DNA of 64,000 bases from Escherichia coli (GTDB lineage: Bacteria; Pseudomonadota; Gammaproteobacteria; Enterobacterales; Enterobacteriaceae), in assembly GCF_046105845.1 (NCBI RefSeq), contig NZ_CP151004.1. The stretch is one strand, 5' to 3'. Positions 11,575-58,945 of this stretch are shown piece after piece. A program made the position numbers and the translations under genes. Numbering within the stretch: the first letter of the stretch is position 1; each line of letters starts with the position of its first letter. The notes under the pieces are model-generated. The model was given only the letters and a program-made list of their open reading frames with translations, ran no database searches and was not told the origin of the DNA.

Positions 11575-12759
11575 TTAATTCAACCGTTCAATCACCATCG
11601 CAATTCCCTGGCCGCCACCAATGCACAGTGTTGCCAGCCCCAGCGTTTTATCGCGTGCCTGCATGGCATGTAATAGTGTGACCAGAATACGAGCACCACT
11701 GGCACCGATAGGATGCCCGAGCGCGATGGCCCCGCCGTTGACATTCACTTTCTCAGAATCAAAGCCCAGGGTTTTCCCAACGGCAAGGAACTGTGCAGCA
11801 AATGCTTCATTAGCCTCAATGAGATCAATATCCGCCAGTTGCAGCCCCGCCAGTTGTAACGCTTTTTGCGTGGCAGGTACTGGCCCCATACCCATCAATG
11901 CGGGGGGCACGCCACCGCTGGCATAACTTTTAATGCGAGCCAGGGGGGTAAGGCCTGCTGCCAGCGCCGCAGATTCTTCCATAATCACCAGAGCGGCAGC
12001 ACCGTCGTTAATACCAGACGCGTTCCCGGCGGTGACTGTTCCTGCTTTATCGAAGGCCGGGCGCAATGCGCCTAACGCTTCAGTCGTAGAATCCGCTTTC
12101 GGGAATTCGTCTTGACTGAAGACGAAGGTTTTCTTCCGAGTGACAACATTTACCGGGACGATTTCGGCTGTAAAAGCACCGGACTCAATTGCGGCTGCCG
12201 CTTTACGCTGTGAATGTAGCGCCAGTTCATCCTGCATTTCTCGGGTAATTCCGTACTCTTTGGCCACGTTCTCGGCGGTAATCCCCATATGATAACCATG
12301 GGTGGCGCACATCAGACCATCGCGCAGGATTACGTCATAAACCTGTCCGTCTCCAAGACGATAACCAGAGCGTGCTTTTGCATCGAGTAAGTAGGGCGCT
12401 AAACTCATATTTTCCATACCCCCCGCCACAATGCTTTGCGCCTGACCTGCCTGAATTGCCTGGGCGGCAAGCGCCACACTTTTAAGACCCGAACCACACA
12501 CTTTATTGACCGTGAATCCGCACACCGTTTCTGCCAGCCCGCTTTTTAACAGTGCCTGACGTGCCGGATTTTGCCCCAACCCGGCTTGCAACACGTTACC
12601 CATAATCACTTCATCAATGTGTAGTGAATCGATTTTTGCACGTTCAATGGCGGCTTTAATTACTGTCGCCCCCAGGTCGATGGCGCTGGTGGAAGCGAGT
12701 GAACCGTTAAAACTACCGATAGCAGTACGTACCGCACTGACGATGACACAATTTTTCAT
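11575..12759 (-). CDS. atoB: Acetyl-CoA acetyltransferase (thiolase II), 394 aa
   Basis: Translation [17 protein letters not shown]... with thiolase active-site Cys motifs; last gene of atoDAEB. Confidence 0.95.
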
Positions 12760-12789
12760 TTTTTATTCCTTCTGTCTGTAGGGTTGCCG

Positions 12790-14112
12790 TCAGAACAGCG
12801 TTAAACCAATGACGAAAATGACGCCGGAGAAGAGCAGGGCAGTGATGCAATAGCCCATGATGTCGCGGACACCGAGTCCGGCGATTGCCAGTGCTGGCAG
12901 CGCCCAGAATGGTTGTGCCATGTTCATCCATTGCTCGCCGTAGGCGATCGCCATTACCGATTTACCGAGATCAGCGCCCAGCGCCTGGGCTGCGGGTATC
13001 ACGAAAGGTCCCTGAATAACCCAGTGACCGCCGCCAGACGGAACGGCGAAGTTAATCAGTGCAGAACTAAAAAAGGTCATTACCGGGAAGGTGTCTTTGT
13101 TCGCAACATTGATGAAGAATTCGGTAATGAGTCCGCCCAGACCGGAATGCTCCATCATCAGTTGGATCCCCGCGTAGAAGGGGAATTGCACCAGAATACC
13201 GGCAGTACTGCGTGCTGCCGCGCTGATAGCACGCATATAAGCCATTGGCGTTTTATGTAGCAGCAGACCCGCAATCATAAACATCAGGTTGACGGTATTG
13301 ATGGTGATGTTGAAGCCATGTTCGCTGAAGTACATCGCAAGGTAAGCGATACCGAGTGCGCCAATGATCAACGTCAGAATGCGGCTCTCTTCCAGTCGCT
13401 CGGATGGTGGGGCATCTTTCGGTAGCTGCTTTTGAAAATCAGCCTCTTCCATGAGTAGTTTCGGATCGATACTCACCACGTCAGACGGTTTTGGCATCAT
13501 CATGCGGGTGATAAATGGCATCACCACAATCAACGCCACAGTGATGAAAATGTTAAAACCACTGAACAGAGTATCGCCCACCGGGATCAGCCCGGCGATA
13601 TGCTCAACCGGGTTGCCCGGTGTTGCAGCCAACAGAGGCATTGAGCCAGAGAAACCGCCACCCCAGGTGAGAAAACCAATGTAGGCGCAGGCAATGAGCA
13701 ACGGATAATCAGAACCGGGTACTCGGCGGGCGACTTCACGGGCAAACATTGCGCCGACAACCAAACCAAATCCCCAGTTGATGACACAAGCGACTGAACC
13801 GAAGAAAGTAACCAGCATGACGCCCTGTACGGGCGTCTTTGCGGCGGAGGCGGCAGTACGCAGCAAACTTTTTACCGGAGCAGAGCTGGCAAGGGCATGA
13901 CCGGTAACGATGATAAGCGCCATCTGCATACCAAACGCCAGCAAGTTCCAGAAACCGTCACCCCACATTTTCACCATGCTGATCGGCGTTTGTGGTGTTA
14001 ACCAAAGCGCGATCACGAAAGTTAGCAATGTCAGCAACATGGCAAAGATCAGTGGATCGGGAAGCCACCGGCTGACAAAACGCGTCATAAAACGCGATAT
14101 GCGACCAATCAT
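12790..14112 (-). CDS. atoE: Short-chain fatty acid transporter, 440 aa
   Basis: Polytopic membrane protein ORF between atoA and atoB; length matches AtoE. Confidence 0.9.
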   Translation of the reverse strand: MIGRISRFMTRFVSRWLPDPLIFAMLLTLLTFVIALWLTPQTPISMVKMWGDGFWNLLAFGMQMALIIVTGHALASSAPVKSLLRTAASAAKTPVQGVMLVTFFGSVACVINWGFGLVVGAMFAREVARRVPGSDYPLLIACAYIGFLTWGGGFSGSMPLLAATPGNPVEHIAGLIPVGDTLFSGFNIFITVALIVVMPFITRMMMPKPSDVVSIDPKLLMEEADFQKQLPKDAPPSERLEESRILTLIIGALGIAYLAMYFSEHGFNITINTVNLMFMIAGLLLHKTPMAYMRAISAAARSTAGILVQFPFYAGIQLMMEHSGLGGLITEFFINVANKDTFPVMTFFSSALINFAVPSGGGHWVIQGPFVIPAAQALGADLGKSVMAIAYGEQWMNMAQPFWALPALAIAGLGVRDIMGYCITALLFSGVIFVIGLTLF

Positions 14113-14759
14113 AAATCACCCCGTTGCGTATTCAGATCGGCGGCAACTTCAAACCGAGCTTCTGTTTTGGCACACACGGTGGCTAAATCACACCCGTCGG
14201 CAATTTCGGTGAGCCACATTTTGCCGTCAATAAAACGAAAGACAGCCAGTTCAGTAACCAGCATATGCACCGCATGTTGCGCAGTGAGTGGCATGGTGCA
14301 GCGGCGCAAAATTTTTGCTGAACCATCTTTGGCACAATGTTCCATGGCGATGATCACTTTGCGCGACCCGGTCACCAGATCCATCGCGCCACCCATACCG
14401 GGCACCATTTTCCCAGGCACTACCCAGTTCGCGAGGTTTGCTTCTTCGTCTACTTGCAAACCGCCGAGCACGCAGGCATCAATATGACCGCCGCGGATTA
14501 GCGCAAATGACATGGCGCTATCAAACATGGCTGCACCGGGTAAAACACCGCACGGTTGTCCGCCAGCGTTCACCAGATCTGGATGCGCTGTCGTGACCGG
14601 GCCTAAACCGAGGAAGCCGTTTTCCGATTGCAGAGTGATATGAATACCCTCCGGTAAAAAATTGGCGACCATTGTGGGTAAACCGATCCCTAAGTTAACG
14701 ATGTCACCATCACGAAGCTCTTGCGCCACACGGCGCGCAATACGTTGTTTCGCATCCAT
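14109..14759 (-). CDS. atoA: Acetate CoA-transferase beta subunit, 216 aa
   Basis: Translation [15 protein letters not shown]...; 4-nt overlap with atoE. Confidence 0.93.
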   Translation of the reverse strand: MDAKQRIARRVAQELRDGDIVNLGIGLPTMVANFLPEGIHITLQSENGFLGLGPVTTAHPDLVNAGGQPCGVLPGAAMFDSAMSFALIRGGHIDACVLGGLQVDEEANLANWVVPGKMVPGMGGAMDLVTGSRKVIIAMEHCAKDGSAKILRRCTMPLTAQHAVHMLVTELAVFRFIDGKMWLTEIADGCDLATVCAKTEARFEVAADLNTQRGDL

Positions 14760-15421
14760 TATTTGCTCTCCTGTGAAACGATGATGTGGTCGATAACGGC
14801 ACCAGGGGTGACAATATGGTCAGGTTGCAGCTCGCCGGTTTCGACCAGTTCATCTGGCTCTACCAGCGTGATATCAGCCGCAAGGGCTATCAGGGGGTTA
14901 AAGTTGCGGGCGCTAAGTTGATAGGTCAGGTTGCCAAGTGTGTCGCAACGATGAGCGCGAATTAGCGCCAGGTCGGCGCGCAGTGGGCGTTCGAGCAGCC
15001 AGGTTTTACCGTCGAGTGTCAGTGTCTGTTTGCCTTCCTCTACGACGGTGCCGACACCCGTTGGGGTGAGAAAACCACCAAGTCCAGCTCCACCACAGCG
15101 AATTTGCTCGATTAGCGTACCTTGCGGCACCAGAACGACGTCCATCTCACCAGATATCATGCGCCGACCTGTTTCCGGGTTGGTGCCGATATGTGAAGCA
15201 ATCACTTTGCGGACTCGACCATTGACGATGAGCGGACCGATGCCAGTATCAACAAACGCGGTATCATTGGCTATCAATGTCAGGTCGCGAACACCAGATT
15301 CCAGTAATGCTTCAACCAGGCGGGATGGAGTGCCAATCCCCATAAATCCGCCCACCATGATGGTCATGCTGTCACGAAAGAAGCCGGTGGCGTCTTGTAA
15401 TGTCATCAATTTTGTTTTCAT
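14759..15421 (-). CDS. atoD: Acetate CoA-transferase alpha subunit, 220 aa
   Basis: Translation [15 protein letters not shown]...; first gene of the operon. Confidence 0.93.
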
Positions 15422-15464
15422 TTTTTATCCCTCTTGCATACACCGTTGTGGGTACAGTCAGGGA

Positions 15465-15484
15465 ATAGCAAGGGGAGTGCCAGA
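15465..15484 (-). promoter_or_regulatory. Sigma54 (-24/-12) promoter of atoDAEB
   Basis: Minus strand reads TGGCAC-tcccc-TTGCT (plus-strand gtgcca 15477-15482, agcaa 15467-15471), about 45 bp upstream of the atoD start. Confidence 0.75.
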
Positions 15485-15565
15485 ATGAGATTATTGGATT
15501 TAGTTATTTAACTAATTGAATAGAAAAGGATAAATTGGATGGGGATTTATAAGGAGAATGAGCGG

Positions 15566-15605
15566 CTATGCAGAAAATTGCGCACTGTGCAAATTTCTGC
15601 ATAGC
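15566..15605. promoter_or_regulatory. AtoC upstream activating sequence (40-bp imperfect palindrome)
   Basis: gctatgcagaaaattgcgcac / tgtgcaaatttctgcatagc inverted repeat about 100 bp upstream of the sigma54 promoter. Confidence 0.7.
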
Positions 15606-15616
15606 AAGTTTTGGCG

Positions 15617-17002
15617 TTATACATCCGCCGGATCGATACCGTATTCCTGGAGTTTATACATCAATGCACGGCGACTGATGCCCAGCATTAAAGCAGTGCG
15701 GGTTCGGTTTCCTTCTTGTTGTTCCAGCACTTCCATAATGATGCGTTTTTCGACGCGTTTAATTTCCTCTTTTAAATTACGCTCACCGACAGGGGATGTT
15801 TTTACCTCGCCAGCATTACAGACTGGCTGACGAATCTGCGGCGGAAGATCCTCAGAAAAAATGATCGGGCCTGAGTTCATCACGACGGCGCGTTCAATAA
15901 CGTTGGAAAGCTCTCGAATATTTCCCGGCCATGACCAGGCGGTAAGCAGTGACATTGCCATCGGATCGATGTCGATAATATCGCGCTGATTCTCACTACT
16001 GAATTTTTGCAAAAAGTGATTAGCTAACAGGGAAATATCTTCCCGGCGATCGCGCAGAGGCGGCAGTATTAAATGAATAACGTTAAGGCGATAAAAGAGA
16101 TCTTCACGGAAGGTGCCTTCTTTTACCATTGCCTGCAAGTCACGGTTGGTGGCAGCAATGATGCGGATATCAACTTTTATGGTCTGATGGCCGCCAATCC
16201 GTTCAAATTCCCGTTCCTGCAGAATGCGTAGTAATTTGGCTTGCAGTACGAGCGGCATTTCGCCAATTTCGTCGAGGAGCAGAGTACCTTCGTTGGCACG
16301 TTCAAATAATCCCTGACGCAAGGTTTGTGCACCAGTAAATGCACCTTTTTCATGACCAAACAGTTCACTTTCGAGCAACGATTCCGGCAGCGCCGCGCAG
16401 TTGACTTTAATGAACGGCCCCTTTGCCCGCCGCGAATTGTAGTGAATCGCTCTGGCAATCAACTCTTTCCCGGTGCCGCTTTCACCGCTAATCAAGACGC
16501 TGGCCTGAGAAAGGGCAATTTTGGCGGTGTCTTTGCAGATGTCCATCATCGCCGGGCTGTTGGTGAGAATGTGCCCCCATTGCCAGCTGGTGCTCAGTGC
16601 CTGGTGCAGATGACGGATCTCTTTTTTCATTGACTGGAGTTGTAAAGCGCGCTGAACGATTAAATTCAACTCATCGAGATCAAACGGTTTGATAACATAG
16701 TCGAAGGCTCCGCAGCGTAGCGCTTCGACGGCGGTTTCCACTTCAGCATAGGCCGTCATCAGAATAACGGGTGTCCGGGTCTCATTACTGCGCATCTCCT
16801 TTAGTGCCTTGATGCCGTCCATCTCTGGCATGCGGATATCCATCAACACCACGTCAGGGTGAATATCGACAAACAGGTGTAATGCTGTGCGTCCGTTGTT
16901 CGCACAATGTGTTTCGAATCCTTGTAGTGCAAAAGCGGTGCTCAGCATACGGCGAACATTATCTTCATCATCCACAATAAGGATGCGATTAATAGCAGTC
17001 AT
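15617..17002 (-). CDS. atoC: Sigma54-dependent response regulator AtoC (NtrC family), 461 aa
   Basis: Receiver domain, AAA+ Walker A GESGTGKE, GAFTGA sigma54-contact motif, C-terminal HTH. Confidence 0.95.
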   Translation of the reverse strand: MTAINRILIVDDEDNVRRMLSTAFALQGFETHCANNGRTALHLFVDIHPDVVLMDIRMPEMDGIKALKEMRSNETRTPVILMTAYAEVETAVEALRCGAFDYVIKPFDLDELNLIVQRALQLQSMKKEIRHLHQALSTSWQWGHILTNSPAMMDICKDTAKIALSQASVLISGESGTGKELIARAIHYNSRRAKGPFIKVNCAALPESLLESELFGHEKGAFTGAQTLRQGLFERANEGTLLLDEIGEMPLVLQAKLLRILQEREFERIGGHQTIKVDIRIIAATNRDLQAMVKEGTFREDLFYRLNVIHLILPPLRDRREDISLLANHFLQKFSSENQRDIIDIDPMAMSLLTAWSWPGNIRELSNVIERAVVMNSGPIIFSEDLPPQIRQPVCNAGEVKTSPVGERNLKEEIKRVEKRIIMEVLEQQEGNRTRTALMLGISRRALMYKLQEYGIDPADV

Positions 17003-18825
17003 ACAGTCTGATTTCCCTGCGGGTTGATCGGTAAAATAAGCGTGAAGGTTGCGCCGTAGCCCGGCAAACTGGCGACGCGAATATCACCCTGATGGGCATT
17101 AATGATGCGTTGACTTAACGCCAGACCAAGCCCGGTTCCTGAGGCTTTGGTGGTGAAAAAGGGATCGAAGATCTTTTTTTGCAGCGAGAGATCAATGCCA
17201 CAGCCGTTGTCCTCTATCGAAATGGCCTGTTGTGAGTCGCTGTATTGCCAGGTTTGAATGCGAATTTTCCCTCGTGCGCTGATAGCCTGGACGGCATTGA
17301 TCAGGATATTCAGTAGTACCTGTTTGAGCAGTTCACGATCGGCGTTAATCGGGTTTAATTCATTATCCAGTTCGCTTATGAAGTCGACCCGCGCTTGTAC
17401 GCCAGCGGTTTGTACCAGTACCAGAGTTTCTTCAACCAATGCATTGAGGCTGACTTGTTGCCATTGACTGTGGCGTGGACGTGAAAATTCGAGCAATTGC
17501 TGAATAACTTTGTTAATTGAATCGATTTCTTTGAGTACTACGGACAGATATTCCTGATGTATTGGGTCACCGGTTTGTTGGCGCAAGATCTGTACATAAC
17601 CACGAATAGCCGTTAGCGGATTACGTACTTCATGCGCGACGCCAGCCATCAGCTCACCCAGTGTGGCGAGGCGTTCTGCTTGCGCCATGCGGCGCTGGGT
17701 TTCTTTGCGGGCAGTTAAATCAGAGAAAATCACCAAAGCACCTATCATTTCACCATGCGTGTTATGAATACGACTGGTAGTGACACTGAGTTCAATGGTG
17801 CGGTCACGGCCTGGAAAACTGATCTCCAGCGCTACATGTTCGGTGCCATGTTCCAGCGTATCCAGTACTGGACTGTAGAACTGAGTATGGTCGAACAACA
17901 TGGAGTAAGGCTGCCCTACCAGTTCATGACGTTGATAGCCAGTGATGACTTCTGCTGCCGGGTTCATGGTGGTTACATCACCCTGGCGGTCAATGGCAAT
18001 GACGCCATCGGCAGCGTTTTCAATAATCAGATCGTTGAGTGTCCGCGTTTCACGCAGTGCCTGGGCGAGGTTGTTAACACTCTGACTGATTTGCCCCATT
18101 TCACCGGGCAATTGTGGTAATCGAGTGGGAATATTTTGCGCCAGAGTCGAGAGGCCATCGGTGATGATATCAATATTGGCGCTCAGGCGACGGGAGAAAA
18201 GGACAATCAACAGCAGGCTTATCAGCAAACCGGCGGTGAGCACAATGATAATCCTCACATCCATTCTCCAGGCCTGGCGGCGAATATCTTCGGTTAATTC
18301 ATTGGCCCAGATATAGCCGAGGATTTCACCATTACGCTCAATGGGGAGCATTGAATTCAAAATATCGCCGCGCACCTGCCTGCCTGAATAAACCAAAGGG
18401 GTATTTGTACGCATGACTTCGCGACCAGGGTGATCTGCGGCAATGGTAACGCCGACATTATTCTGATATAGCGCTGAAGGCGCGTAGGTGATTATCGCAT
18501 CCAGCGTTTTGTTGTAATAACCAGCGCCGATGCCAGGGAAGGCGTGAGTGATATTTTCGGTAATGGGGGCAAGTTCTGCATTTAATGCGCGGATACGCTC
18601 CTCACGTGGTAAGTCGATGTAGAGATCATAGCGATCGCCTAGTGCCTGATTAAGCAGGTTGACCACGGCAGAAAGTTTTTTCTCTTTTTCAGATAAGACT
18701 GCTGAACGTCCTTCCGTTTCTACGATATAACCAATAGTAAGCGTTGGGACAATGACCATCAGGATTGCCATCAGGATCATTTGATTGCGTAAGCGGCGTG
18801 GATAAATCCACTTCATATAATGCAT
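16999..18825 (-). CDS. atoS: Sensor histidine kinase AtoS, 608 aa
   Basis: ORF track 16999..18837 (GTG start); start set at ATG 18825 (MHYMKWIYPRR...); H-box AHEVRNPL; overlaps atoC by 4 nt. Confidence 0.9.
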   Translation of the reverse strand: MHYMKWIYPRRLRNQMILMAILMVIVPTLTIGYIVETEGRSAVLSEKEKKLSAVVNLLNQALGDRYDLYIDLPREERIRALNAELAPITENITHAFPGIGAGYYNKTLDAIITYAPSALYQNNVGVTIAADHPGREVMRTNTPLVYSGRQVRGDILNSMLPIERNGEILGYIWANELTEDIRRQAWRMDVRIIIVLTAGLLISLLLIVLFSRRLSANIDIITDGLSTLAQNIPTRLPQLPGEMGQISQSVNNLAQALRETRTLNDLIIENAADGVIAIDRQGDVTTMNPAAEVITGYQRHELVGQPYSMLFDHTQFYSPVLDTLEHGTEHVALEISFPGRDRTIELSVTTSRIHNTHGEMIGALVIFSDLTARKETQRRMAQAERLATLGELMAGVAHEVRNPLTAIRGYVQILRQQTGDPIHQEYLSVVLKEIDSINKVIQQLLEFSRPRHSQWQQVSLNALVEETLVLVQTAGVQARVDFISELDNELNPINADRELLKQVLLNILINAVQAISARGKIRIQTWQYSDSQQAISIEDNGCGIDLSLQKKIFDPFFTTKASGTGLGLALSQRIINAHQGDIRVASLPGYGATFTLILPINPQGNQTV

Positions 18826-18991
18826 GCTGAAATCCACTAGTCTTGTCCGGTATATGACGATTATCAGAGGTTAAGGTGATGATTTCTCGGCGGTGTATCA
18901 TATTCCAGAGAAGAGAGAACATTGCGGTAACACGCTTTTACCGCTACCTTAACCACACTCCATCGGTCACCTGAGGCGGAGCTTCGCCCCT

Positions 18992-21841
18992 TTGAAATAC
19001 CTTGCTTCTTTTCGTACAACCCTGAAAGCCTCGCGCTACATGTTCAGAGCATTGGCGTTAGTGCTCTGGCTGTTGATTGCTTTTTCATCCGTTTTTTACA
19101 TCGTTAATGCGTTACATCAGCGAGAATCGGAAATTCGTCAGGAATTTAATCTGAGTTCCGATCAGGCTCAGCGCTTTATTCAACGTACCTCTGATGTGAT
19201 GAAAGAGCTGAAGTACATCGCTGAAAATCGCTTATCGGCAGAAAACGGTGTGCTTTCCCCGCGTGGACGAGAAACGCAGGCGGATGTGCCTGCGTTTGAA
19301 CCGCTGTTTGCCGACTCCGATTGTTCCGCAATGAGTAACACCTGGCGAGGCTCTCTGGAGTCATTGGCGTGGTTTATGCGCTACTGGCGCGATAATTTCT
19401 CTGCGGCTTACGATCTCAACCGGGTATTTTTAATCGGCAGCGATAACCTCTGCATGGCCAATTTCGGTCTGCGTGATATGCCAGTGGAACGCGATACCGC
19501 GTTGAAAGCGTTGCATGAACGCATTAATAAATATCGAAATGCACCACAAGATGATAGTGGCAGTAACCTCTACTGGATCAGCGAAGGTCCGCGCCCTGGC
19601 GTCGGGTATTTTTACGCGTTGACGCCAGTTTATCTGGCGAACCGGTTGCAGGCGCTTTTGGGTGTCGAGCAGACTATCCGGATGGAGAATTTTTTCTTAC
19701 CTGGTACGTTGCCGATGGGGGTTACCATTCTTGATGAAAATGGTCATACCCTGATTTCGCTTACCGGACCAGAAAGCAAAATTAAGGGCGATCCTCGCTG
19801 GATGCAGGAACGCTCCTGGTTTGGCTATACGGAAGGTTTCCGGGAGCTGGTGCTGAAGAAAAATCTGCCTCCCTCATCGCTAAGCATCGTTTATTCGGTG
19901 CCGGTTGATAAGGTGCTGGAACGCATTCGCATGTTGATCCTTAACGCAATTTTGCTGAATGTGCTTGCCGGAGCTGCATTGTTTACTCTCGCGCGGATGT
20001 ACGAGCGGCGTATTTTCATTCCGGCGGAAAGCGACGCCTTGCGACTGGAAGAACATGAGCAGTTTAATCGCAAGATTGTCGCCTCCGCGCCAGTGGGTAT
20101 CTGCATTTTGCGTACCGCTGATGGCGTCAATATTTTAAGTAACGAACTGGCGCATACCTATCTCAATATGCTTACGCATGAGGACCGCCAACGGCTGACA
20201 CAAATTATCTGTGGGCAGCAGGTCAATTTTGTTGATGTCCTGACCAGTAACAATACCAATCTGCAAATCAGCTTCGTCCATTCGCGCTATCGTAATGAAA
20301 ACGTGGCCATTTGTGTGCTGGTGGATGTTTCTTCGCGCGTGAAGATGGAAGAGTCGTTGCAGGAGATGGCACAAGCAGCGGAACAGGCGAGCCAGTCAAA
20401 ATCGATGTTCCTTGCCACCGTCAGTCATGAGCTGCGAACGCCGCTGTATGGCATTATCGGTAACCTGGATCTGTTGCAAACCAAAGAGTTACCGAAAGGC
20501 GTCGATCGTCTGGTGACGGCAATGAACAACTCTTCCAGCCTGTTGTTGAAAATTATCAGCGATATTCTCGACTTCTCGAAGATTGAATCGGAACAGTTGA
20601 AGATCGAACCACGTGAGTTTTCACCGCGTGAAGTGATGAACCACATCACCGCCAACTATTTGCCGCTGGTGGTACGCAAGCAGCTAGGCTTGTACTGCTT
20701 TATTGAACCGGATGTGCCAGTGGCCTTAAATGGCGACCCAATGCGTTTACAGCAGGTCATCTCCAACCTGTTGAGTAACGCCATAAAATTCACCGATACC
20801 GGCTGTATAGTTCTGCATGTTCGCGCTGATGGCGATTATCTCTCTATCCGCGTTCGCGATACCGGCGTGGGTATTCCAGCGAAAGAAGTGGTGCGCTTGT
20901 TTGATCCCTTCTTCCAGGTCGGAACGGGCGTACAGCGTAACTTCCAGGGGACCGGTCTGGGGCTGGCGATTTGTGAAAAACTGATCAGCATGATGGACGG
21001 CGACATCTCGGTAGATTCAGAACCGGGAATGGGCAGCCAGTTTACCGTGCGTATTCCGTTGTACGGCGCTCAGTACCCGCAGAAAAAAGGCGTGGAAGGG
21101 TTGAGTGGTAAACGCTGCTGGCTGGCGGTCCGCAATGCGTCGCTCTGTCAGTTCCTGGAAACCAGTTTGCAGCGCAGCGGCATCGTCGTTACAACATACG
21201 AAGGGCAGGAACCGACTCCCGAAGATGTGTTAATCACTGACGAGGTAGTGAACAAAAAATGGCAGGGTAGAGCGGTAGTGACCTTCTGTCGTCGCCATAT
21301 TGGTATTCCGCTGGAGAAAGCGCCAGGGGAGTGGGTACACAGTGTGGCTGCCCCGCATGAGCTACCGGCATTGTTGGCGCGTATTTATTTGATCGAGATG
21401 GAGAGCGACGATCCTGCTAACGCTCTGCCGTCGACGGACAAAGCGGTCAGCGATAACGACGATATGATGATTCTGGTCGTGGATGATCATCCGATTAACC
21501 GGCGTCTTCTGGCAGATCAGTTGGGATCGTTGGGCTATCAATGTAAAACCGCGAATGATGGCGTCGATGCGCTTAATGTACTTAGCAAGAATCATATTGA
21601 TATCGTGCTTAGCGACGTCAACATGCCAAATATGGATGGTTACCGCTTGACGCAACGCATTCGTCAGTTGGGACTGACGTTGCCGGTAATCGGAGTAACT
21701 GCTAATGCGTTGGCTGAAGAGAAGCAGCGGTGTCTGGAGTCCGGTATGGACAGCTGCCTGTCGAAGCCGGTAACGCTGGATGTGATAAAACAGACGCTAA
21801 CGGTATATGCCGAGAGGGTCAGGAAATCGCGGGATTCGTAG
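18992..21841 (+). CDS. rcsC: Hybrid sensor kinase RcsC, 949 aa
   Basis: TTG start (no in-frame ATG upstream before a stop); H-box VSHELRTPL, C-terminal receiver domain. Confidence 0.95.
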   Translation: MKYLASFRTTLKASRYMFRALALVLWLLIAFSSVFYIVNALHQRESEIRQEFNLSSDQAQRFIQRTSDVMKELKYIAENRLSAENGVLSPRGRETQADVPAFEPLFADSDCSAMSNTWRGSLESLAWFMRYWRDNFSAAYDLNRVFLIGSDNLCMANFGLRDMPVERDTALKALHERINKYRNAPQDDSGSNLYWISEGPRPGVGYFYALTPVYLANRLQALLGVEQTIRMENFFLPGTLPMGVTILDENGHTLISLTGPESKIKGDPRWMQERSWFGYTEGFRELVLKKNLPPSSLSIVYSVPVDKVLERIRMLILNAILLNVLAGAALFTLARMYERRIFIPAESDALRLEEHEQFNRKIVASAPVGICILRTADGVNILSNELAHTYLNMLTHEDRQRLTQIICGQQVNFVDVLTSNNTNLQISFVHSRYRNENVAICVLVDVSSRVKMEESLQEMAQAAEQASQSKSMFLATVSHELRTPLYGIIGNLDLLQTKELPKGVDRLVTAMNNSSSLLLKIISDILDFSKIESEQLKIEPREFSPREVMNHITANYLPLVVRKQLGLYCFIEPDVPVALNGDPMRLQQVISNLLSNAIKFTDTGCIVLHVRADGDYLSIRVRDTGVGIPAKEVVRLFDPFFQVGTGVQRNFQGTGLGLAICEKLISMMDGDISVDSEPGMGSQFTVRIPLYGAQYPQKKGVEGLSGKRCWLAVRNASLCQFLETSLQRSGIVVTTYEGQEPTPEDVLITDEVVNKKWQGRAVVTFCRRHIGIPLEKAPGEWVHSVAAPHELPALLARIYLIEMESDDPANALPSTDKAVSDNDDMMILVVDDHPINRRLLADQLGSLGYQCKTANDGVDALNVLSKNHIDIVLSDVNMPNMDGYRLTQRIRQLGLTLPVIGVTANALAEEKQRCLESGMDSCLSKPVTLDVIKQTLTVYAERVRKSRDS

Positions 21842-21921
21842 GACGGATAAGGCGTTTACGCCGCATCTGGCATTCAGTGCAAATGCCAGATGCGACGCTG
21901 ACGCGTCTTATCTGGCCTACA
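21842..21921. repeat. REP/BIME element (two inverted REP units) between convergent rcsC and rcsB
   Basis: gacggataaggcgtttacgccgcatctggca ... tgccagatgcgacgctgacgcgtcttatctggcctac, the canonical GCCGGATG/CTTATCCGGCCTAC-type REP. Confidence 0.8.
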
Positions 21922-25577: not shown

Positions 25578-25670
25578 AAAAAAAACCGGATGCGAGGCAT
25601 CCGGTTGAAATAGGGGTAAACAGACATTCAGAAATGAATGACGGTAATAAATAAAGTTAATGATGATAGC
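25578..25670 (-). ncRNA. micF: MicF antisense sRNA (93 nt), divergent from ompC
   Basis: Minus strand reads GCTATCATCATTAACTTTATTTATTACCGTCATTCATTTCTGAATGTCTGTTTACCCCTATTTCAACCGGATGCCTCGCATCCGGTTTTTTTT, matching remembered micF including its terminator hairpin and U-tail. Confidence 0.9.
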
Positions 25671-25825
25671 GGGAGTTATTCTAGTTGCGAGTGAAGGTTT
25701 TGTTTTGACATTCAGTGCTGTCAAATACTTAAGAATAAGTTATTGATTTTAACCTTGAATTATTATTGCTTGATGTTAGGTGCTTATTTCGCCATTCCGC
25801 AATAATCTTAAAAAGTTCCCTTAAA

Positions 25826-32011: not shown

Positions 32012-33670
<1,659 letters not shown>

Positions 33671-33675
33671 TGATG

Positions 33676-33798
33676 TGCCACATCCGGCATGGTATGCCGG
33701 ATGTGGCGTATGCAGATAAGACGCGTCAGCGTCGCATCAGTCAACCGGCTCGGGCGTTAGATGTCGGATGCGGCGTGACCGCCTTATCCGACCTACGG
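33676..33798. repeat. BIME/REP cluster between convergent mqo and eco
   Basis: Palindrome gccacatccggcat-ggt-atgccggatgtggc followed by further REP units (cagataagacgcgtcagcgtcgcatc; gatgtcggatgcggcgtgaccgccttatccgacctac). Confidence 0.8.
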
Positions 33799-50700: not shown

Positions 50701-52461
50701 TCAGTTAGCGATAAAACGCTTCTCGTCTGTCAGCACTTGCAATAACAAACTTAACTGTGGTTTTTCATCTTTCACTCTTTCACCACGTAAGTTGTAAGTG
50801 CGGTATTTACCGTTATTGTTCAGCACCAGCGTCTTTTTCGGGGTGGTAATTGCCAGCGTATCGTTATCCGCTGCGGTAACCCAGTAATGACGGCGTTGAG
50901 GGTTGAACAAATCCTGACCTTGCGAATATTCGCTGGCAGGTGTGCTGACATGTAGCAGGCGTTGCATCAGCGTCGTCATCAGATCGGTATGATCAGTCAG
51001 AGCATTAATACGCTGCGCCGGCGTGCCTGGCCAGTGAATCACTAATGGCACCTGCAGATGACCGTGGGACCAGTCAAAGGTTTCTTCCTCTTCGCTCAGC
51101 GGAATACCCCGACCGGCAGTGATAATCACCACCGTATTGTCCAGTTTGCCAGAATCATGCAGTGCATTGAGCACGCGGTTGATTTGGTCATCGACATTGC
51201 CTGCCGCCCGGCTATATTTCCGTGCAAATGCCTGCTGATTGCTGTCGTCAATGTTAGTGCCATTGAAAGAGATCCACGAGAACCAGCGGTTATCTTCTTG
51301 TGCGTAGCGGCCCAGCCAGTTGATCCACTGCGTGGCGGTCTGCTCGTCGGATTGGGTGCGTACGCTCGGCATCGAGAAATCTGACAACAATGCCTGGCGA
51401 TACAGCGGGCTGGTAAAGCCATCTGATGAGAATAACCCCAGCTGATAGCCTTGCTGATTAAGCGCAGTAATTAATGCCGCAGGCGTACGGGTCGACAGAA
51501 TACCGTCCATATAGCTCGGCGAGATGCCATAGAACAGGCCAAAGATGCCGTTGTCTGTAGTGTTGCCGGAGCTCATATGGCGCGTGAACGAAATATTTTG
51601 CTCAGCAAAACCTGCCAGCGCAGGCATCTGCTTCTCGAAGCGTGAGTAGTTCAGGCCATCGACAGTAATCAACAGCACATTCTGCCCGGTGCCCATATCG
51701 CGATAGCGCAGTTCGCTTAACGGATACTGAACGGAAACGGCGTCTGGATTACCTTGCTCAATGAGACGGCGTTGATACTCCTGCGCATCAAGCAGACCAT
51801 GCTTCTCAAGAAAACGTCGCGCCGTCATCGGGTACGAAAGCGGTAGGTTAGCGCGCTGCATGGTGATCGGGCGATAGAAGTTGGCATCGGCCCAGATATA
51901 AACCACATGCGAGGCGATAAAGGCGATAAATAAGAATGCGGCCAGCGGGCGCGCGAAGCGTCGACGACGCGTCAGGCTTCGCAGCTTTTGCCAGCTCCAC
52001 GTCGCAAACACCAGTTCAAGCAATAAAATAACCGGCACGCTGATGAACATCAGCTGCCAGTCGCGCGCCATCTCATTTTCGTCTGGGTTGATAACCAGTT
52101 GCCAGACGATGGGATTAAGATGGAGATGGAAACGAGTAAAGACTTCGCTATCGATCAGTAATAGCGTCATTCCCGCCGTTGCCAGAATGACGGACAAAAA
52201 CCTCATCAGCCTCTGGGAGCCGACGATAAAGGTCAGCGGGAAGAGGATCAGCAAGTAGGTGGCGAACACCAGGAAGCTGAAATGGCCGATAATGCTTACG
52301 TAGGAATAAATGCGACCAGCAAGCGTTGTCGGCCAGTCGGCGATAAACAGGTAACGGCTGCCAATGACGAGCGAAAGCAGAATATTGAACAGTGCAAACC
52401 AGTGCCCCCAACTGACCATCTGGGAGACTTTTTCACGGTAGCGCTGACGATGAGTTACCAT
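50701..52461 (-). CDS. yejM: LPS assembly/LpxC-regulating inner membrane protein YejM (LapC/PbgA), 586 aa
   Basis: N-terminal TM helices plus periplasmic sulfatase-like domain; length and synteny match. Confidence 0.93.
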   Translation of the reverse strand: MVTHRQRYREKVSQMVSWGHWFALFNILLSLVIGSRYLFIADWPTTLAGRIYSYVSIIGHFSFLVFATYLLILFPLTFIVGSQRLMRFLSVILATAGMTLLLIDSEVFTRFHLHLNPIVWQLVINPDENEMARDWQLMFISVPVILLLELVFATWSWQKLRSLTRRRRFARPLAAFLFIAFIASHVVYIWADANFYRPITMQRANLPLSYPMTARRFLEKHGLLDAQEYQRRLIEQGNPDAVSVQYPLSELRYRDMGTGQNVLLITVDGLNYSRFEKQMPALAGFAEQNISFTRHMSSGNTTDNGIFGLFYGISPSYMDGILSTRTPAALITALNQQGYQLGLFSSDGFTSPLYRQALLSDFSMPSVRTQSDEQTATQWINWLGRYAQEDNRWFSWISFNGTNIDDSNQQAFARKYSRAAGNVDDQINRVLNALHDSGKLDNTVVIITAGRGIPLSEEEETFDWSHGHLQVPLVIHWPGTPAQRINALTDHTDLMTTLMQRLLHVSTPASEYSQGQDLFNPQRRHYWVTAADNDTLAITTPKKTLVLNNNGKYRTYNLRGERVKDEKPQLSLLLQVLTDEKRFIAN

Positions 52462-54035: not shown

Positions 54036-54428
<393 letters not shown>

Positions 54429-58600: not shown

Positions 58601-58945
58601 GTGACTTCATTACAACTCTCAATCGTCCATCGACTGCCGCAGAACTATCGCTGGTCTGCTGGTTTCGCAGGTTCGAAGGTTGAACCGATTCCGCAAAATG
58701 GACCGTGCGGTGACAACAGCCTTGTGGCGCTTAAATTGCTTAGCCCGGATGGTGATAATGCATGGTCGGTGATGTACAAACTAAGCCAGGCGTTAAGCGA
58801 CATCGAAGTTCCATGTTCGGTGCTGGAGTGTGAAGGTGAGCCGTGCCTGTTTGTAAATCGCCAGGACGAGTTTGCAGCAACATGCCGATTGAAAAATTTT
58901 GGTGTGGCAATTGCCGAACCCTTCTCAAACTACAATCCTTTTTAA
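58601..58945 (+). CDS. yejG: Uncharacterized protein YejG, 114 aa
   Basis: Translation [18 protein letters not shown]...; convergent with yejF. Confidence 0.85.

Follow-up and report, generated by a model that had tools for sequence, protein, structure and literature searches.

The spacer between atoC and atoD of Escherichia coli raises the question of how the operon atoDAEB is switched on, and whether a sigma-54 promoter and the enhancer of its activator are both encoded there. The original prediction, made for positions 15465-15605 of the 64,000-nucleotide stretch of E. coli DNA analysed here (the window), was that they are. According to our analysis, this region is, with a probability of about 0.96, the E. 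coli atoDAEB control region, composed of a sigma-54 promoter and an AtoC enhancer; the functional data stem from strain K-12. The atoDAEB promoter, the AtoC palindrome and the sigma-54 dependence are already known from K-12, and the promoter is in use as a part of acetoacetate biosensors.

Layout of the ato locus

On the minus strand, atoS and atoC are followed by a spacer of 195 bp and then by atoDAEB (Table 1). The regulated operon occupies 11575-15421, and all four of its reading frames are intact. Over its 7.5 kb, the ato locus shares 99.6% identity with complete E. coli genomes, and in 3,923 E. coli genomes RefSeq labels the matching stretch atoC / atoD. A search with positions 15380-15680 of the window as query detected the spacer in 3,923 of 5,426 complete E. 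coli genomes (72%), which means that the ato locus is absent from more than a quarter of them. One of the E. coli copies of the spacer region is plasmid-borne.

The presence of AtoC with a GAFTGA motif next door, which had been part of the prediction, was borne out: the 3' end of atoC (15617) is 11 nt away from the palindrome, and GAFTGA corresponds to residues 220-225 (nucleotides 16345-16328). The protein consists of REC (residues 7-115), AAA+ (145-311), lid (317-393) and HTH_8 (415-454) domains, which are matched by the Pfam families Response_reg, Sigma54_activat (1.5e-75), AAA lid and HTH_8. A REC domain, a sigma-54 interaction AAA+ domain with GAFTGA and a C-terminal HTH are the constituents of an NtrC-family enhancer-binding protein. 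The NCBIfam equivalog models were passed by AtoC (1000 bits, cut-off 714), AtoS (993 bits, cut-off 646) and AtoD (443 bits, cut-off 315). For NtrC and ZraR, the score of AtoC is below the NCBIfam equivalog cut-offs.

Table 1. Coordinates of the features of the ato locus and of RNA elements elsewhere in the window.
Feature	Position	Strand	Basis
atoS, sensor histidine kinase	16999-18837	minus	HAMP, PAS, HisKA, HATPase_c
atoC, sigma-54 enhancer-binding response regulator	15617-17002	minus	Pfam/NCBIfam domains
atoC-atoD spacer, 195 bp	15422-15616	minus	
AtoC enhancer (upstream activating sequence)	15565-15605	minus	20+1+20 inverted repeat; identity to verified AtoC sites
IHF-like site ATTCAATTAGTTA	15509-15521	minus	one mismatch to WATCAANNNNTTR
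Sigma-54 -24/-12 element CTGGCACTCCCCTTGCT	15467-15483	minus	consensus match; weight matrix; identity to OS21
Predicted transcription start	15456-15459	minus	motif rule; footprint coordinates
atoD leader	15422-15455	minus	conserved block GTACCCACAACGGTGTATGC (15455-15436); Shine-Dalgarno AGAGGGA (15434-15428)
atoD	14759-15421	minus	
atoA	14109-14759	minus	
atoE	12790-14112	minus	
atoB	11575-12759	minus	
naRNA4, REP-derived RNA directly after rcsC	21841-21917	plus	Rfam, above gathering score
MicF sRNA	25578-25671	minus	Rfam, above gathering score
tRNA-Pro (GGG)	50553-50626	minus	Rfam, above gathering score
L25 ribosomal protein leader	54342-54367	minus	Rfam, above gathering score

The AtoC palindrome

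The palindrome consists of two arms (15586-15605 and 15565-15584) which are separated by a single nucleotide and are complementary at 18 of 20 positions; its letters are GCTATGCAGAAATTTGCACA, g, TGCGCAATTTTCTGCATAGC. No other palindrome of the window reaches 18 of 20 matches, and none of this quality occurred in 100 simulated windows. Its centre (15585) is located 104 nt upstream of the -24 GG, and the edge-to-edge gap to the promoter element is 81 nt; relative to the predicted start site it extends from about -109 to -149. The prediction of a 40-bp imperfect palindrome about 100 bp further upstream was therefore fair in position, and its length has to be corrected to 41 bp. The spacing claimed for an NtrC-family enhancer also held, given a dyad-symmetric site centred 104 nt before GG and within the expected range of about 100-150 bp. 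In the study of Matta et al. 2007 (J Bacteriol 189:6324), the AtoC footprint reportedly reaches from -146 to -107; promoter mutants reportedly supported sigma-54 dependence, and IHF was reportedly required.

The enhancer reading could be compared directly with K-12 data. AtoC is described as binding to a 40-bp palindrome located upstream of atoDAEB and as activating the expression of the operon in a sigma-54-dependent manner (PMC3118216; K-12). Table 5 of that paper lists two sites that were ChIP-positive for AtoC in vivo, GCTATGCAGAAATTTGCACA (-184/-165) and GCTATGCAGAAAATTGCGCA (-163/-144), numbered from the atoD start. The arms found in the window are letter-for-letter identical to these sites and lie at the same distances from A15421 (15605-15586 and 15584-15565). 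Dyad symmetry, distance and identity to verified AtoC sites coincide in one element, which supports the AtoC enhancer that had been proposed. In addition, deletion of atoS, atoC or atoSC abolished the response of a Pato reporter (PMC7618054). A search of the window for further AtoC half-sites with at most three mismatches gave no hit.

The 301 bases around the spacer, which is flanked by atoC and atoD in RefSeq, are 98.3% identical to K-12, and AtoC is identical at 458 of 461 residues (99%). The 17-mer of the promoter and both 20-bp AtoC arms are the same as in the K-12 Pato region, at identical distances from atoD. Five single-base differences were found (15615, 15527, 15524, 15523 and 15463), all of which are outside the palindrome, the core of the IHF-like site and GG/GC; the three at 15523-15527 are neighbours of the IHF-like site. 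As none of them affects a core element, the copy in the window should work like that of K-12; judged from its sequence, the ato control region of this strain is intact and should be inducible. At position 15463 (-7), the window has a C (TTGCTATTCCC), which is the majority state in other genera; K-12 has a G.

The -24/-12 element upstream of atoD

The near-consensus element TGGCAC-N5-TTGCT was predicted about 45 bp before atoD. It occupies 15482-15467 on the minus strand, with GG at 15481-15480 and GC at 15469-15468, and there are exactly 45 nt between 15467 and the A of the ATG codon (15421). The exact -24/-12 consensus occurs once in the window, compared to an expected number of 0.19; at least one match was present in 19 of 100 shuffled sequences.

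For scoring, a sigma-54 weight matrix was derived from 41 published sites, leaving out atoD. The atoD site reached 14.2 bits, which is the top score in the window and rank 33 of 42 among real sigma-54 sites. Among simulated 64-kb sequences, 89.5% contained a site of at least 14.2 bits, with 2.15 such sites per 64 kb on both strands; for a single strand of the 195-bp spacer, this corresponds to about 0.003 expected sites. The weight-matrix scan that had been suggested as a check consequently ranked the site first and did not make it significant at the 64-kb scale, which is why the case has to rest on the context of the site, on its conservation and on the binding data in the literature.

Further matrix matches of 12-14 bits were noticed on the plus strand at 19364-19400 in rcsC, at 17578-17594 and at 58724-58740. 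These were dismissed as promoters and treated as chance matches, since they are missing from the published ChIP-seq list. Their scores are nearly as high as that of the atoD promoter, which indicates that the motif taken on its own is weak.

In a ChIP-seq map of sigma-54 in K-12, site OS21 upstream of atoD has the motif CTGGCACTCCCCTTGCT, and its promoter is flagged as experimentally confirmed in EcoCyc (PMC4591121). The 17-mer 15483-15467 of the window is identical to the motif of OS21. Moreover, in genomic SELEX the atoC-atoD spacer is among the DNA bound in vitro by the RpoN holoenzyme (PMC8743547). Together, these results support the sigma-54 reading of the atoD promoter. A consensus scan for sigma-70-like promoters detected none in 15300-15800, where 1.1 were expected. 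GG/GC spacing, orientation and distance, conservation (see below) and the lack of a rival sigma-70 promoter in the consensus scan are all as they should be for a sigma-54 promoter.

Conservation across genomes and alternative readings

When species-representative genomes were scanned with AtoD, 80 loci were obtained. In 28 of these (L003-L027 and L029-L031), a match to AtoC is directly upstream of atoD; they belong to the genera Escherichia, Citrobacter, Edwardsiella, Atlantibacter, Serratia, Symbiopectobacterium, Entomohabitans, Enterobacillus and Morganella. The best sigma-54 motif in the 400 nt upstream of atoD scored between 12.7 and 17.8 bits in all 28 cases and ended 40-48 nt before the ATG. 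More generally, about 40 Enterobacterales loci have kept GG/GC at 40-50 nt from the ATG, and the neighbouring bases vary. High-scoring motifs were also found upstream of the gene in Hafnia, in several Photorhabdus and Budvicia loci, and in five loci of Bacillota.

These five loci (L043, L052, L053, L059 and L071, from Bacillus and other Bacillota) contain genes for CoA-transferase subunit A that are 60-64% identical to AtoD. Their sigma-54 motifs score 19.5-21.9 bits and are located 42-60 nt upstream of the gene; a gene for an AtoC-like activator lies upstream in two of the five. The motifs indicate that sigma-54 control of this type of operon extends beyond Proteobacteria.

For the spacer itself, conservation was calculated as the fraction of 30 aligned Enterobacterales spacers that share the base of the window. 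The values are 0.85 and 0.75 (arms of the palindrome), 0.74 (IHF-like site) and 0.80 (-24/-12 element), compared to 0.39 and 0.44 for the two stretches between these elements. This cross-genus footprint marks the constrained bases in enhancer, IHF-like site, promoter and leader.

In each of 32 loci there is exactly one copy of the palindrome core, TGCACA-N(1-2)-TGYGCA, which is always located 170-215 nt before atoD. Its inner part TTGCRCA is fixed, and both outer arms change together between lineages. The outer arm reads GCTATGCAGAA in Escherichia and Citrobacter, GCCATGCAATA in one C. freundii, CCAGGCAAAGA in Atlantibacter, TGAGAAGGAA in Serratia and GGGAAGAAA in a further group. Such concerted changes are as expected for a site that would be read by a symmetric dimer. 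The core also stays with atoD where atoC is not adjacent, as in Budvicia aquatica (L045) and Photorhabdus bodei (L034).

Upstream of atoD in loci L003-L045, the distance between the centre of the enhancer and the -24 GG clusters at about 103-107 nt in Escherichia and Citrobacter, 117-118 nt in the Serratia group and 126-128 nt in Hafnia and Photorhabdus. These clusters are about one helical turn apart; a strict helical phasing is not claimed on account of outliers at 96.5 and 143 nt.

The lineage-specific rewriting of the outer arms from GCTATGCAGAA to CTGAGAAGGAA or CCGGGAAGAAA around a constant inner TTGCRCA bears on a variant of the enhancer reading which we regard as rather unlikely but worth naming. 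Either the AtoC palindrome may also act as a hairpin at the 3' end of atoSC (-23 kcal/mol), so that selection would act partly on the hairpin, or the DNA-reading helix of AtoC and its site may have co-evolved. If the former is true, the hairpin could stabilise the atoSC mRNA at its 3' end besides the enhancer role.

Considerably less probable, and in our opinion very improbable, is a reading in which the palindrome acts mainly, or in addition, at the RNA level, as a hairpin that terminates or stabilises the atoSC transcript at its 3' end, and not as an enhancer. The element does begin 11 nt downstream of the stop codon of atoC and has, as RNA, a fold of -23.3 kcal/mol (z = -5.1), but the stem is followed by CCGCUCAUUCUCC and not by a U-tract, and the terminator scan of the minus strand did not identify an intrinsic (Rho-independent) terminator. 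A hairpin would likewise predict the concerted changes of both arms across lineages; what it requires is complementarity, whereas the inner core is conserved in its sequence as such. Furthermore, the core of Budvicia aquatica is part of the atoD promoter region and is separated from the atoC end by about 1.3 kb, including an inserted gene, and in Photorhabdus bodei it is present with no atoC within 2.5 kb upstream. Finally, binding of AtoC to exactly these arms has been published (PMC3118216).

The reading of the -24/-12 element as a chance match, with AtoC acting on a sigma-70 promoter of atoD, can appeal to the fact that chance alone should yield a sigma-54 site of this quality at the 64-kb scale and that the exact consensus appears in 19% of shuffles, yet it has practically no credit left, given that the consensus scan found no sigma-70-like promoter in the atoC-atoD spacer, that about 40 genomes have GG/GC fixed at 40-50 nt from the ATG among variable neighbours, that AtoC has a sigma-54 interaction domain and GAFTGA, and that the occupancy of the identical 17-mer by sigma-54 in K-12, both in vivo (ChIP-seq) and in vitro, already contradicts it.

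IHF-like site and proposed mechanism of activation

The account of a sigma-54 promoter and an AtoC enhancer, correct with respect to these two elements, had left unmentioned an IHF-like site which is located between them, at about -53 to -65 from the predicted start. On its own, the match is weak: 58 one-mismatch IHF matches were counted in the window compared to 50 expected by chance. Its position is conserved to 74% across the 30 spacers versus 39-44% for the flanking spacer, and at the same place Morganella psychrotolerans has the exact IHF consensus. IHF-assisted looping at this predicted site (15521-15509) is likely. Matta et al. 2007 reportedly found a role of IHF at the atoDAEB promoter as well.

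The following course of activation can be proposed. RNA polymerase containing sigma-54 would form a closed complex on CTGGCACTCCCCTTGCT (15483-15467), for which binding in K-12 has been published. According to the literature, acetoacetate would act via AtoS to give phosphorylated AtoC. The latter would occupy the 41-bp palindrome (15605-15565), about 105 bp upstream; again, binding to the exact arms has been published for K-12. The A/T-rich spacer would then bend, probably with the help of IHF at 15521-15509, and bring AtoC to the polymerase. As may be concluded from its family membership, the AAA+ domain of AtoC with its GAFTGA loop would spend ATP to open the promoter, and transcription would proceed from about 15456-15459 through atoD, atoA, atoE and atoB.

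This arrangement resembles the systems NtrC/glnAp2, ZraSR/zraP and PrpR/prpBCDE, with which it has in common an activator composed of REC, AAA+ and HTH_8, a GG-N10-GC promoter with a dyad site located about 100-150 bp before it, and a spacer that is A/T-rich or bent by IHF. In contrast to systems of the NtrC/glnAp2 type, ato has its own signal (acetoacetate via AtoS), its own site sequence GCTATGCAGAAATTTGCRCA, and a single palindrome instead of tandem sites.

Start site, atoD leader and Spot 42

The sigma-54 ChIP-seq study predicts the start site 19 nt downstream of the motif centre, which for OS21 is 35 nt before atoD (PMC4591121). Due to the identity of the 17-mer with OS21, the predicted start in the window is 15456. 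If the footprint reported at -146/-107 is mapped onto the palindrome, a start at about 15459 results, 3 nt from the position predicted by means of the motif.

The beginning of the leader, GTACCCAnAAnGGnGTATGC (15436-15456, minus strand), is conserved in 24 Enterobacterales, and the spacer upstream of it is not; the first 20 nt of the atoD leader are conserved about as much as the promoter. UGUACCC (15456-15450) is the exact complement of nucleotides 4-10 of the small RNA Spot 42, the sequence of which was checked against E. coli genomes. The duplex of the leader with nucleotides 1-11 of Spot 42 has an energy of -12.8 kcal/mol. For nucleotides 1-50, the duplex energy is not significant in comparison with shuffled leaders, so that the short 5' seed match and the conservation are what stands.

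According to PMC7618054, which cites Beisel et al. 2012, Spot 42 (spf) represses atoD, and atoD is among the targets of the 5' single-stranded region of Spot 42 (PMC6127932). In agreement with this repression, the leader opens with UGUACCC, the complement of that region. Pairing with Spot 42 would probably account for the conserved leader block and tie the operon to catabolite repression, a connection which is already known. The element would act post-transcriptionally and lies just downstream of the promoter/enhancer region 15465-15605.

A hairpin in the conserved leader block was considered and discarded. The fold has an energy of -3.8 kcal/mol (z = 0.22); a single pair exhibits a compensatory change, and shuffling gave values that were not separated from the one observed. 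Likewise, the search for known RNA families in the atoC-atoD spacer gave no match, even at E-values up to 10.

Other palindromes of the window

Besides the RNA elements listed in Table 1, two other long palindromes were observed, at 33672-33712 and 50675-50715, with 16-17 of 20 matches. The former has a REP-like appearance (GCCGGATGTGGC...) and directly follows the open reading frame 32024-33670. The latter overlaps the stop end of a minus-strand open reading frame of 586 amino acids, just upstream of the minus-strand tRNA-Pro.
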